DNA of 64,000 nt from Chloroflexota bacterium (GTDB lineage: Bacteria > Chloroflexota > Dehalococcoidia > GIF9 > AB-539-J10): positions 49,382-113,381 of the forward strand of contig DAITOK010000002.1 in the NCBI GenBank assembly GCA_036834125.1, given 5' to 3'. The notes beneath the pieces were generated by a model, which had not been told where the DNA came from, made no database searches, and worked only from the letters and a program-made list of their open reading frames with translations. Position numbers and translations under genes: made by a program. This document shows, in pieces, positions 45,887 to 50,444 of this stretch; within the stretch, counting starts at the first letter, position 1, and each line of letters opens with the position of its first letter.

Positions 45887-47020
45887 CTAGCCTTTCACCA
45901 TCTCTAGAAATCGCTCAAATAGGTACATGTTGTCCAGTGGCCCCGGGGAGGCTTCGGAGTGATACTGGATGGATATGATGGGCAAGTCCCGGTGGCGAAG
46001 CCCCTCCACTGTGCCATCGTTTAAGTTTATATGGCTGACCTCTAGTCCGCCTTTCAGGGTATCGGCATCTATAGCATAGCCATGGTTTTGTGCTGTGATA
46101 TAGACCCGACCTGTAGCTAGGTCTTTCACAGGATGGTTACCACCACGGTGCCCGAATTTGAGCTTGAAAGTCCAAGCTCCCAAGGCTTTGCCTATAAGTT
46201 GGTGTCCCAGGCATATGCCCATTATGGGTTTCTTACCGAGGATACTCTTTACCGTTTTGACTATGTCATCGAGGAGCGCAGGGTCACCAGGTCCTGGTGA
46301 CAAGACGATGCCGTCGGGGTTTAAGGCCAAAATTTTCTTCGCTGAAGCAGTGCAGGGGATAGCGGTCACTCGGCAGCCAAGATAGGACAAGATACGCAGT
46401 ATGTTGTATTTCAGACCGCAATCAACAACCACGATATGGCAGTGCTTTGTTTCGCCACCATCTTTGTCCTTCAGGGCGTGGGAAAGTACACTGGCAACAG
46501 GTGGCGCATTGGGCTGCCATTCGTATGTCTTGTCGGTGCTAACTTGGCGAACGAAATTGATGGCATCATATCTGGGCACGGTTCTCAGTTCCTCTAACGC
46601 CTCCCCTGCTGTCATTTCCGATGTGATAATTCCCATCATCACCCCTGCCGACCTCAAGCGGCGCGTCAAGGCTCGTGTATCTATACCGGCGATGCCTGGG
46701 ATGCCATAAGCCAGCAGAAATTCATGTAAAGTCCGGGTACTTTGCCAGTGGCTGGGCTGCACACAATATTCACGGACTACAAAACCTCTGACTTGAATCT
46801 GCTTGGATTCAAAATCGGAGTCATTGATGCCGTAATTGCCAATCAAAGGATATGTGGGCACTAGAATTTGACCAGCGTAAGAGGGGTCTGTGAGCATCTC
46901 TTGGTAGCCGGTCATACTTGTGCTGAAGACCACCTCACCGTAGGTGGTAGCCTCAGCGCCGAAGGCTTCGCCTTCGTAAACCGCGCCATCTTCGAGAACC
47001 AAAATGGTTTTTTTAGCCAT
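45887..47020 (-). CDS. carA: Carbamoyl-phosphate synthase small subunit
   Basis: GEVVFSTSMTGYQE, TDPSY, SPGPGDP, GICLGHQ and QYHSEASPGP motifs. Confidence 0.97.
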   Translation of the reverse strand: MAKKTILVLEDGAVYEGEAFGAEATTYGEVVFSTSMTGYQEMLTDPSYAGQILVPTYPLIGNYGINDSDFESKQIQVRGFVVREYCVQPSHWQSTRTLHEFLLAYGIPGIAGIDTRALTRRLRSAGVMMGIITSEMTAGEALEELRTVPRYDAINFVRQVSTDKTYEWQPNAPPVASVLSHALKDKDGGETKHCHIVVVDCGLKYNILRILSYLGCRVTAIPCTASAKKILALNPDGIVLSPGPGDPALLDDIVKTVKSILGKKPIMGICLGHQLIGKALGAWTFKLKFGHRGGNHPVKDLATGRVYITAQNHGYAIDADTLKGGLEVSHINLNDGTVEGLRHRDLPIISIQYHSEASPGPLDNMYLFERFLEMVKG

Positions 47021-48390
47021 CAGATTGCCGCGTTGCTTTGTTTGATTACCAATGAGTCGTCTATATGAACTAGCTTGCTGTTTGCTATAGTTGCCATTAT
47101 CTTGCCCCTAAACCTGTAGCCTTCATAAGGAGTATTTTTGCCTTTGGAAACAAAGTTGTGGCTATTCACTACCCATTCTAGGTCAGGGTCGAGCAGGGTG
47201 ATATTAGCTGGGACTCCTATCTTCAAAGTGCCTAGTTCATTATTTCTAGCGATGATTTTTGCTGGCTCATGAGTCAACTTGGAAATCAACTGAACAAGGC
47301 TTAGTTTTCCTTGGTGCACCAAGCTCAGCAGACAACCAAGGGCAGTTTCGAAGCCGCTGATGCCAAAAGCAGCCGCTTCCAGGCCACAGTTTTTATCTGC
47401 TGAGGTATGTGGAGCATGGTCGGTGGCGATAGCGTCAATTACTCCTTCTTTGAGCCCTTCGATTAAGGCGTTAACATCTTCCACGGTGCGCAGAGGCGGA
47501 TTTACTTTGGCATTGGGATTAAGAGATTTATGCGGAGGTCCACTTGTAATCTGTGTTTCGGTTAAGGTCAGATGGTGAGGGGTGACTTCGGAAGTCACCG
47601 GGATCGTTTCTTCCTTAGCGCGGCGAATAAGCTCCATAGAGCCTTTGGTGCTGACATGGGCAATGTGCAATTTAGCTCTGGTCAGCTTAGCCAGAATAAG
47701 GTCACGGGCAACCATAACTTCTTCAGCAGCGGCGGGAATCCCTTTCAGTCTCAACTTATCAGACATCCGACCTTCGTTTATGATTCCCCCAGCGCTCAAT
47801 GCCTTATCCTCGCAGTGGTCAATGATGGGCAAGCCTAAGGTTCGGCTATGCTCGAGGGCACGCCGCATAAGCTGCGAGTTCATTACAGGAGCGCCATCGT
47901 CGCTGAAACCCACCACCCCAGCCTCAGTCAGCTCAGCAAAGTCAGTCAACTCCTCGCCTTTTCTATTTTTGGTGATACAACCTATAGGAAAAACAGCAAC
48001 CACGCCATCTTTGCTGGCTTTTCGTTTTACCCAATCTACGACTGCCGCATTGTCTAAAGGAGGGTCGGTGTTAGGCATACAGCAGACAGCGACAAAGCCA
48101 CCTATGGCAGCCGCTTTTGTCCCTGTGGCAATCGTTTCTTTATTTTCAAAGCCTGGCTCACGGAGGTGACAATGTATGTCTATAAAGCCGGGACAGACAA
48201 TTAGTCCTGTGGCATCCAGAGTTTCCATCTTTTTCTTAGTCCATTCAGAGAGCTGTCCTGAAAGGATAGCCCTCCCAACTTGCGCAATCTTGCCCTCGAC
48301 AATAAGCAGGTCGCCGACCTGGTCTATACCCTGGCTGGGGTCAATTATGCGGGCGCCGTGGATAAGTAAGAACATAGCTTCGTTATTCAT
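47020..48390 (-). CDS. pyrC: Dihydroorotase (type I)
   Basis: DIHCHLREPG, MPNT, FSDDG, HVST, KVNPPLR and ATDHAPH motifs. Confidence 0.96.
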   Translation of the reverse strand: MNNEAMFLLIHGARIIDPSQGIDQVGDLLIVEGKIAQVGRAILSGQLSEWTKKKMETLDATGLIVCPGFIDIHCHLREPGFENKETIATGTKAAAIGGFVAVCCMPNTDPPLDNAAVVDWVKRKASKDGVVAVFPIGCITKNRKGEELTDFAELTEAGVVGFSDDGAPVMNSQLMRRALEHSRTLGLPIIDHCEDKALSAGGIINEGRMSDKLRLKGIPAAAEEVMVARDLILAKLTRAKLHIAHVSTKGSMELIRRAKEETIPVTSEVTPHHLTLTETQITSGPPHKSLNPNAKVNPPLRTVEDVNALIEGLKEGVIDAIATDHAPHTSADKNCGLEAAAFGISGFETALGCLLSLVHQGKLSLVQLISKLTHEPAKIIARNNELGTLKIGVPANITLLDPDLEWVVNSHNFVSKGKNTPYEGYRFRGKIMATIANSKLVHIDDSLVIKQSNAAI

Positions 48391-49808
48391 GGTTTAATAT
48401 AGCTGCTGGGCTTGAATCCTTGAGCTTGAGCATCACCTTCCGAGATGAAGACAATCAAATTCTCAGGCTTAATTCTCCGAGCCCATTGACTGGCAGCACT
48501 ATGATACTTCCTATTTTCTATCTTCCCTTCATGCCAGTCTGAACTGGCAACATACTGAGGATTAAGCTCATGGTCACAATAGACACACCGTAAGGTCACA
48601 GGTTCACGGCTGATTATTTTGAACACAGGCTTTATATACCTTACTTCTGTTTCTTGGTTAGACACACAGTTTTTGTTAGGACACTTAACTCCGGTATCTC
48701 GCTTATAAACAGGATAATCTAGTTTCAGAGCAAAGGAGTCATCTTTTTCAGGGATTGCAACTTCTTTAGCTCCTAACAAAAGAGCAATGAGAGCCATTCT
48801 TACAGGCAGCCCGTAAGCTGCCTGCTTGAAGTACATGCTGCGTGGGTCGGCATCAAGTTCATAAGCTAGCTCATCAACCCGGGGTAAAGGATGCATAACA
48901 AGCGTTTTCTTAAATGCCTTGCCTTTAAGTAGTTTCTTATCCACCACAGGGTAGCCTTTCTTCAACTCCTGCACCTCTGCCTTAGGAGCATATCTTTCCT
49001 TTTGGAGTCTGGTGACGTATAAGGCGTCAATCCCTGCCCTCAGTTCTACTTGAATGCTCACGTCAGGCAACATGGCGAGCTGATGTGGGCTACTGGGGGT
49101 AATGTATATAGCATCTATGGGGAAGGGTCTTCTTTCCATCACCTTGTTCACTGCTTCGTACTTTTTCAGCTCACCCTTGTATTCTGTGCGTAGTCTCTTG
49201 AAGACATGCTCTGGCAGCTCCAGTTCTGGTCCGGGGCGGAAAAGAATCGTGGCACCGAACCTAGCTAGGGCGTAGATTAGCGAATGTACTGTTCGCCCGT
49301 GTTTCAAGTCACCCCACAGAGCAATTCTCAGTCCCTTGAGAGTCTTTCGCTCTTTTCTAATGGTGTAGAGATCGCACAAGGTTTGGGTAGGATGTTCATG
49401 GCTCCCGTCACCGGCGTTTATCACAGGGACGCCAGCATAGTCAGCAACTACCTTAGCAGCGCCTTCCCAGGGGTGCCTGAGCACAATTATGTCGGCGTAG
49501 CTTCCTACCACTTTAGCCATATCAGCAAGGCTCTCACCTTTAGCTAGAGAACTTGCTCCAATGTCCACGGCAGTTATGACACGTCCCCCGAGTCTAAGCA
49601 TTCCAGCTTCAAAAGATAGCCTGGTTCTGGTGCTAGGCTCAAAAAATAAACTAGCCATGATCTTGCCCTGACATAGTGCGGAGTATTTATTTGGTGAAGC
49701 AGCTATCTCATCTGCCAGAGCAAACAATGCTTCTATTTCCGCATTGGACAAATCATCTATTGTCACCAAGCTTCTATTTGCTAGATTCATGATTTCGCAG
49801 CCTTTCAT
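48387..49808 (-). CDS. pyrB: Aspartate carbamoyltransferase catalytic chain fused to a PyrI-type Zn domain and an Ada-like C-terminal domain
   Basis: [21 protein letters not shown] and HPLPR; then CPNKNC...CVYC; then YVAS...KYH...[20 protein letters not shown]. Confidence 0.92.
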
Positions 49809-50368
49809 TCTCCTTTGATTGGCTGTTTGTTTACCAGGTTTTCGATTATCACCTTATCAATGCCATCAGTCTCTTCAAGTAAAACTCGTATCTCCTCATC
49901 TCTCGAGCTCGGGATGTTTTTGCCCACGTAGTCGGCGCGGATAGGAAGCTCTCTATGACCACGGTCAATAAGAACAGCTAATTGAATCGTTCTTGGGCGC
50001 CCCAAATCTATCAAGGCATCCATAGCAGCACGAATACTTCGTCCGGTATAGAGAACATCGTCAACCAAGATTACTTGTTTATCGGTAATGTTAACGGGGA
50101 TGTAAGCATTGTTATTGCTCGGGTTTGCTGGCTTTGGATGCGGGAGGTCGTCGCGATAAAGGCTGATGTCCAGAGTGCCAGTAGGTATAGAAACTCCTTC
50201 GAAGCTGTGGATTATTTGAGCTATGCGTTGGGCTAAAGGCACTCCCCGAGTTCGCATGCCCACCAATACGAGATTCTGGGCGCCCTTATTTCTTTCTACA
50301 ATCTCATGGGCAATGCGAGCAAGTGCCCGATTTATCTCCCCTGAGGTTAGGAGGATTTTTTCAGGCAT
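49805..50368 (-). CDS. pyrR: Bifunctional pyr operon regulator / uracil phosphoribosyltransferase
   Basis: [31 protein letters not shown] and [17 protein letters not shown] motifs; start taken at ATG 50368. Confidence 0.96.
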
Positions 50369-50372
50369 CAAA

Positions 50373-50404
50373 AAACCTCCTGCCTTCACACTGGCAAGAG
50401 GTTT
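50373..50404 (-). terminator. Attenuator hairpin that includes the pyrR SD
   Basis: AAACCTCTTGCC-agtgtgaa-GGCAGGAGGTTT followed by TT; GGAGG lies in the 3' arm. Confidence 0.75.
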
Positions 50405-50444
50405 CAATTGGTGGTTTTGCTACGGTATGATTAAGCACCTTTCC

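Follow-up and report, generated by a model that had tools for sequence, protein, structure and literature searches.

A fused aspartate transcarbamoylase that keeps only the zinc domain of PyrI and ends in a cysteine-less Ada-like domain

Textbooks use aspartate transcarbamoylase (ATCase) as their model of allostery. In bacteria the enzyme is known in three forms: catalytic trimers alone, trimers with the regulatory chain PyrI (separate or fully fused) and trimers with dihydroorotase (DHOase). In 1991 Markby, Zhou and Schachman reportedly described in PNAS that an isolated 70-residue zinc domain of PyrI binds E. coli catalytic trimers tightly, and the bound domain is said to alter the kinetics of the trimer while no hexamers are formed. 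An ATCase family review gives PyrI only as a separate chain or as the full fusion of the Thermotoga type, and attributes the Thermotoga maritima PyrBI fusion to Chen et al. 1998 (as cited in PMC4581275). Here we study a pyrB gene that corresponds to neither arrangement. It lies in a 64,000-nucleotide stretch of DNA (the window) from a Chloroflexota bacterium of the class Dehalococcoidia (assembly GCA_036834125.1, contig DAITOK010000002.1, positions 49,382 to 113,381), where an open reading frame (ORF) at 48387-49808 on the minus strand encodes 473 amino acids plus a stop. The encoded protein joins three parts in one chain: a PyrB catalytic chain, the zinc domain of PyrI without the rest of PyrI, and a small C-terminal tail related to the N-terminal domain of Ada. 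We hold this anatomy, and the homology of the tail, with high confidence.

Compared with the class-B holoenzyme of E. coli and archaea (PyrB6-PyrI6), the fusion has the same type of catalytic chain and the same four-cysteine PyrI zinc domain. However, the regulatory part here belongs to the same chain, in cis, and lacks the allosteric domain that binds nucleotides and forms dimers. Two elements are added: the zinc domain is followed by the Ada-like domain, and the aspartate domain has an insert of about 40 residues. Like the T. maritima-type PyrBI (NF009916), the window protein carries catalytic and regulatory polypeptides in a single chain, but the Thermotoga-type fusion keeps the whole of PyrI (model length 525) and is allosteric, whereas only the zinc domain is kept here. 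A third comparison is with the complex reportedly made in the laboratory from E. coli trimers and the isolated zinc domain, which likewise combines a catalytic chain with a zinc domain and has no allosteric domain. That complex is an engineered fragment bound in trans and has no Ada-like domain, while the fusion is natural and known here from its sequence; even so, it may be the nearest functional analogy for the zinc domain of the fusion.

The catalytic part passes both equivalog models for PyrB, TIGR00670 (311.5 bits, cut-off 236.95) and NF002032 (283.6 bits, cut-off 263), and its Pfam OTCace match is split into two stretches, the last of which ends at residue 343. Among 118 homologues from two phyla, the motifs STRT, HPTQ and HPLPR are invariant together with Arg172, Arg267 and Gln269, Arg111 is nearly so, and the equivalents of Arg167, Arg229 and Gln231 are all present in the window protein. 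Solved ATCase chains are 38-42% identical to it, and in Foldseek the AlphaFold2 (AF2) model aligns with ATCase chains at template-modelling (TM) scores of about 0.86-0.88, normalised to the target. The best sequence matches in the PDB are the ATCases of M. jannaschii and P. abyssi, and because these closest solved relatives work with PyrI we assign the catalytic chain to the PyrI-associated type. Judged from its sequence, then, this should be an active catalytic chain of that type, closest to the archaeal and enterobacterial enzymes.

Within the aspartate domain, two similar heptads, IDAIYIT (231-237) and IDALYVT (260-266), bracket a segment without counterpart in solved ATCases, placed before the functional strand [13 protein letters not shown]. 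The AF2 model has strands at 233-236 and 262-265 with per-residue confidence (pLDDT) of 53-78. It makes the first heptad an extra strand, which two short helices of low confidence follow; the second heptad is the functional strand that runs into TRLQKER. The segment is conserved in members from Chloroflexota and Planctomycetota and is longer in the planctomycetes.

The zinc domain is recognised well above the Pfam cut-off (Table 1), and its ligands are Cys376 and Cys381 of CPNKNC (376-381) and Cys408 and Cys411 of CVYC (408-411), all four invariant in the homologues. A model of the C-terminal 112 residues matches the PyrI chains 1pg5_B and 2yww in Foldseek over 51 columns with a root-mean-square deviation of 1.8 A, and a profile search also finds PyrI chains. 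The other half of PyrI is a different matter. No Pfam match to the N-terminal nucleotide-binding domain of PyrI is found in the window protein even at E 10; the whole-PyrI model TIGR00240 is matched only at profile positions 104-147 of 150 (36 bits, cut-off 148.55); and the Thermotoga-type PyrBI model NF009916 gives 107 bits (cut-off 800), with only its positions 5-240 matched. Because only about 28 residues lie between the catalytic domain and the first zinc cysteine, there is physically no place for the allosteric domain, and the profile evidence indicates that it is truly absent. As encoded, the fusion has no PyrI-type nucleotide site and should be unable to sense nucleotides in the textbook PyrI manner. 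An earlier first-pass annotation, made by a model from the letters alone, had given the ORF these exact coordinates, a short linker leading straight to CPNKNC...CVYC, a zinc domain kept without the allosteric domain, a repeat-like insert IDAIYIT...IDALYVT and an architecture distinct from the Thermotoga-type fusion, and on each of these points our analysis agrees with it.

We now turn to the tail. Searched alone, the tail matches the NCBIfam sunset model NF051437 at E 4.9e-5 to 8.8e-5 (22.5-23.3 bits, under the cut-off of 27) and Pfam Ada_Zn_binding (PF02805) at E 0.027-0.045 (14.2-14.9 bits, under the gathering threshold of 23). The sunset match covers residues 428-468 of 473, that is, the extreme C-terminus of the host protein. 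For the last 62 residues the values are E 8.8e-5 (22.5 bits) and E 0.045 (14.2 bits). Although below threshold, these matches are more than chance would give. Across the family, 32 of 41 tails individually match Ada_Zn_binding, no other family recurs, and 28 of the 41 match the sunset model at E <= 0.01, the best at 5.8e-7. We built one alignment from the 41 cysteine-less PyrB tails (A2) and another from 39 cysteine-containing repeats found in other proteins (A3). The top PDB matches of the A2 profile are structures of Ada's N-terminal domain (1adn/1eyf, 1u8b, 1zgw and 1wpk, E 4.8e-4 to 1.1e-3); the A3 profile finds Ada N-terminal structures at E of about 1e-6, with ribosomal protein L4 of C. 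acnes next. Aligned with each other in hhalign, A2 and A3 are related with 99.4% probability (E 2.4e-21).

The same alignments show what has happened to the metal site. The Ada ligands Cys38, Cys42, Cys69 and Cys72 align to His436, Ser440, Ser468 and Ile471 of the window protein, so that three of the four ligands are replaced and His436 alone remains. The methyl-acceptor position (Ada Cys38) is this histidine, which is not conserved in planctomycete members. Cysteine-to-serine replacements run through the family, and every tail seen on PyrB is cysteine-less. AF2 predicts a folded tail (pLDDT 81-89) with the element order strand-strand-helix-strand-helix, in agreement with the Ada N-domain fold as described in PMC12353581. 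The tail thus resembles the N-terminal domain of E. coli Ada (1adn, 1eyf, 1u8b, 1zgw) in profile and in element order, but unlike it has no Cys4 zinc site, no methyl-acceptor cysteine and no following helix-turn-helix domain, and gives no Foldseek match. On the profile evidence it is a metal-site-degenerate domain of the group named ADA_N-like in ECOD (PMC12353581) and sunset in NCBIfam. With the described members of that group (an ECOD X-group; NF051437) it shares small size, C-terminal position, homology to Ada and a metal site that has often deteriorated. It differs from them in sitting on a metabolic enzyme and in scoring below the curated sunset cut-off. To our knowledge, no such domain has been reported before on a metabolic enzyme.

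The first-pass annotation had also read the tail as an Ada-like domain with serine in place of cysteine, and had tied that reading to profile similarity with Ada_Zn_binding; the similarity is there, and the replacement proves to be family-wide. One of its claims does not survive. It had the allosteric domain swapped for the Ada-like module, but in PyrI the missing domain precedes the zinc domain, on its N-terminal side, and the tail follows it C-terminally, on the opposite side. Its reading of the module as a binder of phosphate or nucleic acid is taken up below and we regard it as unlikely. Nor is the architecture a one-off: as described below, it is common in at least two phyla.

To place the tail among its relatives, we searched 1.84 billion representative proteins exhaustively with phmmer, taking the C-terminal 127 residues as query, and obtained 113 matches of two classes. 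The first consists of PyrB fusions of the same architecture, full-length or fragmentary. The second consists of unrelated proteins that share the tail only, often in two to five tandem copies with the consensus YVGSxxSxKYHxxxCxWAxxIxPENxxxFxSxxEAxxxGYxPCxxCKP. These cysteine-containing repeats pass the Ada_Zn_binding gathering score (36-75 bits) and have the ligand set His-Cys-Cys-Cys. Among the proteins with tandem Ada_Zn_binding repeats, P0139, P0141 and P0185 (also P0154, P0159, P0167, P0192 and P0200) are apparently secreted or membrane-anchored, and a staphylococcal-nuclease domain is present in three of the cysteine-containing repeat proteins. NCBIfam models NF051448-NF051451 describe 'sunset domain variants' of ribosomal proteins L17, L20, L4 and S2, so that several housekeeping proteins carry this small domain at the C-terminus. 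Some phmmer matches of 118-180 residues could be taken for stand-alone subunits made of zinc domain and tail; we reject this, as they start within PyrB ([10 protein letters not shown]..., MALI..LLG) and are fragments. In the window itself, profile hidden Markov model (HMM) scans of the six-frame translation find no further copy of the tail domain. A single fetched locus, L041, has two matches to the tail HMM, and could hold a frameshifted or duplicated pyrB 3' end.

How widespread is the fusion? Scanning a single genome for each GTDB species yields 300 loci with close relatives, and the best 80 of the 300 are all from Dehalococcoidia, Dehalococcoidales or Chloroflexota metagenome-assembled genomes (MAGs). 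The nearest named relatives of the window protein are likewise from Dehalococcoidia and Chloroflexota MAGs, with more distant members named from Anaerolineales and the SAR202 cluster. A search seeded with one distant member, P0152, returns 120 proteins of 452-542 residues, nearly all of which match all three Pfam domains; they belong to Planctomycetaceae, Pirellulaceae and other Planctomycetota, and a single one to Chthoniobacterales. An artefact of misassembly or frameshift can be rejected, given more than 120 homologues of near-identical length and about 300 genomes with the same architecture. We have seen only one tail-less example, P0226 (425 residues), in which PyrB and PyrI_C end just past the zinc domain; it has a different aspartate-domain insert, and may either lack the tail naturally or be the product of a truncated gene call. 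Literature searches on the architecture, on "sunset domain" and on PyrBI fusions of Chloroflexi and Planctomycetes returned no description of the fusion. The architecture is thus widespread yet undescribed. The name 'hypothetical protein' is given by NCBI to P0264, P0272, P0286, P0302, P0328, P0343 and P0354 from the search seeded with P0152 and to P0201 and P0239; by their sequences, these planctomycete, SAR202 and Dehalococcoidia members are evidently ATCases, and the labels an annotation gap. Because many fusion proteins carry this label, pyrimidine biosynthesis may be under-called in genomes of Planctomycetota and SAR202.

A small set of relatives has kept the module and lost the enzyme. 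In P0184, P0188, P0190 and P0191 the motifs STRTR, HPTQ, TRxQKER and HPLPR are all gone, while all the zinc cysteines, four in number, persist, as does the tail with its His, Asn, Phe, Ala and Gly. Because these catalytically dead relatives keep zinc domain and tail, the two together probably have a role of their own that is independent of catalysis by the chain they sit on, and the four proteins may be pseudo-ATCases that act as scaffolding or regulatory subunits.

What could that role be? The explanation we favour, to which we would give an even chance, is that the fusion is an active PyrI-type ATCase with a zinc domain in cis and a metal-less Ada-like module of structural or assembly function. 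The catalytic chains would form their usual trimer, and every zinc domain would dock on a catalytic chain as at the catalytic-regulatory interface of E. coli ATCase. Zinc domain and tail, perhaps together with the aspartate-domain insert, would make up a rigid peripheral module, docked in cis, which would make the trimer more stable or adjust its behaviour, and might also bring two trimers together or retain a partner. The module would not be a sensor of CTP or ATP (cytidine or adenosine triphosphate) like PyrI, and feedback on the pathway would more likely run through the adjacent, translationally coupled PyrR. This structural or assembly mechanism, taken by itself, is tentative, and we rate it somewhat below an even chance.

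The junction between zinc domain and tail bears on the rigidity of such a module. The tail abuts the zinc domain without a linker, and the spacing from the last zinc cysteine to the first tail strand is constant across phyla, with an insertion of seven residues at this junction in the clade of the window protein. Homology to E. coli PyrI reaches into the first tail strand, where ...CEKEFSHNVV aligns to ...CehelaprVV of the profile. The zinc domain's final strand and the strand that opens the Ada-like domain would accordingly coincide or abut, which from the sequence we infer to give a rigid two-domain unit. The predicted TM score (pTM) of 0.87 for the full chain and the pLDDT of the modelled tail are consistent with a fixed arrangement.

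Several points weigh against the structural explanation. The docking of the zinc domain and the bridging of trimers are steps that we infer, and a separate pyrI may exist elsewhere in the genome. In Foldseek searches of the PDB, the matches to the C-terminal model were all PyrI zinc domains and not Ada, and those to the full model all ATCase chains; because Ada was not returned, the assignment of the Ada fold rests on sequence profiles and on the order of secondary-structure elements. The tail also evolves faster than the catalytic core: identity in the tail core is 80% within Dehalococcoidia and 29% between phyla, against 92-94% and 53-62% for the catalytic domain, a pattern equally suited to an appendage under weak constraint and to an interface. 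Finally, basic C-terminal extensions and the presence of relatives on nucleases and ribosomal proteins leave some room for polyanion binding.

This last point leads to the strongest of the rival explanations, namely that the tail is a ligand module for a nucleotide, a phosphorylated effector, polyphosphate or a nucleic acid, and provides a new allosteric input or a tether to RNA or DNA. We regard it as unlikely, even though the ancestry of the tail suggests it: the family descends from the DNA-backbone-binding domain of Ada, cysteine-containing relatives are fused to nucleases of the staphylococcal type, sunset variants exist for L4, L17, L20 and S2, and the ECOD authors list ComEC and ribosomal L4 among the contexts of the domain (PMC12353581). 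Short basic C-terminal extensions occur in many members, and 76% of the fusion proteins are net positive over tail plus extension. The tail core itself, however, averages a charge of -0.4, compared with +3 in the cysteine-containing repeats, and a strong positive charge, looked for as a hint that it binds nucleic acid, was absent from this near-neutral core. The tail also has neither the metal site that shapes the DNA-binding surface of Ada nor the methyl-acceptor cysteine, the L4 copy of the domain is reported to be disordered on the ribosome (PMC12353581), and no function of ADA_N-like domains is known outside Ada itself. Conservation points the same way. The tail positions kept across phyla, Tyr435, Phe454, Ala460 and Gly464, belong to the fold core, while no polar tail residue is common to Chloroflexota and Planctomycetota, His436 and Asn450 both being changed in planctomycetes. 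As far as the alignments go, conservation and charge together speak more for a module of structural or protein-contact function than for a conserved site that binds a small molecule.

A partner held by the module could be DHOase. Here the zinc domain and tail would be a docking platform for PyrC, in an ATCase-DHOase complex like the dodecamers of Aquifex or Pseudomonas. This we consider a little less probable again than a ligand module. The pyrB and pyrC genes overlap by 4 bp and their adjacency is conserved in Dehalococcoidia, and the gene of the catalytically dead P0191 (L086:936-2198) lies between a pantothenate-kinase-like gene (Pan_kinase) and a DHOase-like gene, directly upstream of the latter, as expected if the carcass of the enzyme holds or activates DHOase. 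Yet the planctomycete members and the P0174 lineage are not beside pyrC, ATCase-DHOase complexes are not known to need a zinc domain, and pyrB-pyrC adjacency is common in bacteria, whichever complex forms. That the tail is instead a functionless leftover, once zinc-binding and now decaying at the C-terminus, is very improbable, for all that three of four ligands are gone and the tail outpaces the rest of the protein in evolution, since the same fold-core residues are kept in Dehalococcoidia, SAR202, Anaerolineales and Planctomycetota and even in the pseudo-enzymes, AF2 predicts a folded domain, and, among the proteins seen, the tail is missing from a single one only.

As an architecture, the fusion would be a fourth natural form of ATCase, with the zinc "adaptor" of PyrI only plus an Ada-like domain, present in hundreds of species of two major environmental phyla, and would extend the classification of the enzyme. 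It would show how an allosteric enzyme sheds its sensor yet keeps its adaptor. It also puts an orphan domain, whose other hosts are ribosomal proteins, secreted nucleases and ComEC (PMC12353581 for ComEC and L4), on an enzyme that is well understood and allows the domain's role to be assayed. A more far-reaching proposal, which we think doubtful, is that zinc domain and tail form an unrecognised regulatory or assembly device of ATCase common to Chloroflexota and Planctomycetota, acting through effector or nucleic-acid sensing, DHOase recruitment or trimer pairing, with pseudo-ATCases as pure regulatory or scaffolding subunits in some lineages. If true, this would give the first functional handle on the ADA_N-like/sunset family.

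Table 1. Features of the fused pyrB gene and of its operon neighbours, in window coordinates. UPRTase, uracil phosphoribosyltransferase.
Feature	Residues	Coordinates	Strand	Basis or remark
Whole ORF: PyrB chain fused to PyrI zinc domain and Ada-like tail		48387..49808	-	
Carbamoyl-phosphate-binding domain	12-151	49356..49775	-	Pfam OTCace_N, E 8.6e-49; motifs STRTR, R111, HPTQ
Aspartate-binding domain	152-345	48774..49355	-	Pfam OTCace; TRLQKER, HPLPR and C-terminal helix
Family-specific insert (~40 aa)	about 215-260	49029..49166	-	Extra strand IDAIYIT and two short helices
Linker, catalytic chain to zinc domain (~28 aa)	346-373	48690..48773	-	Least conserved region
PyrI zinc domain	374-416	48561..48689	-	Pfam PyrI_C PF02748, E 1.3e-11, 44.6 bits (cut-off 23.4)
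Cysteine-less ADA_N-like ('sunset'-like) C-terminal domain (57 aa)	417-473	48390..48560	-	Profiles and AF2
pyrR (PyrR/UPRTase-like regulator)		49805..50407	-	Stop overlaps pyrB start by 4 bp (49805-49808)
pyrC (type-I-like DHOase, 456 aa)		47020..48390	-	Start overlaps pyrB stop by 4 bp (48387-48390)
carA (carbamoyl-phosphate synthase small subunit)		45887..47020	-	

The fused gene is part of a compact minus-strand cluster, in which mraZ-rsmH-ftsA-ftsZ are followed by pyrR-pyrB-pyrC-carA and then by purC, a Sua5-like gene and carB. The start of pyrB is uncertain by six residues: most homologues start at the equivalent of Met7 (window 49790), and the upstream ATG (Met1) is the one that makes an ATGA overlap with the stop of pyrR. 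The pyrC/carA junction has an overlap of 1 bp (47020). Together with the ATGA-type overlaps at pyrR/pyrB and pyrB/pyrC, it suggests translational coupling of the whole operon. The order pyrR-pyrB-pyrC is kept in 58 of the 65 fetched Dehalococcoidia loci that have room on both sides, while planctomycete and other members have unrelated gene neighbourhoods. Elsewhere in the window, the segment 18001-20000 has a G+C content of 0.39, against 0.45-0.54 in the rest, and could be foreign or non-coding DNA.

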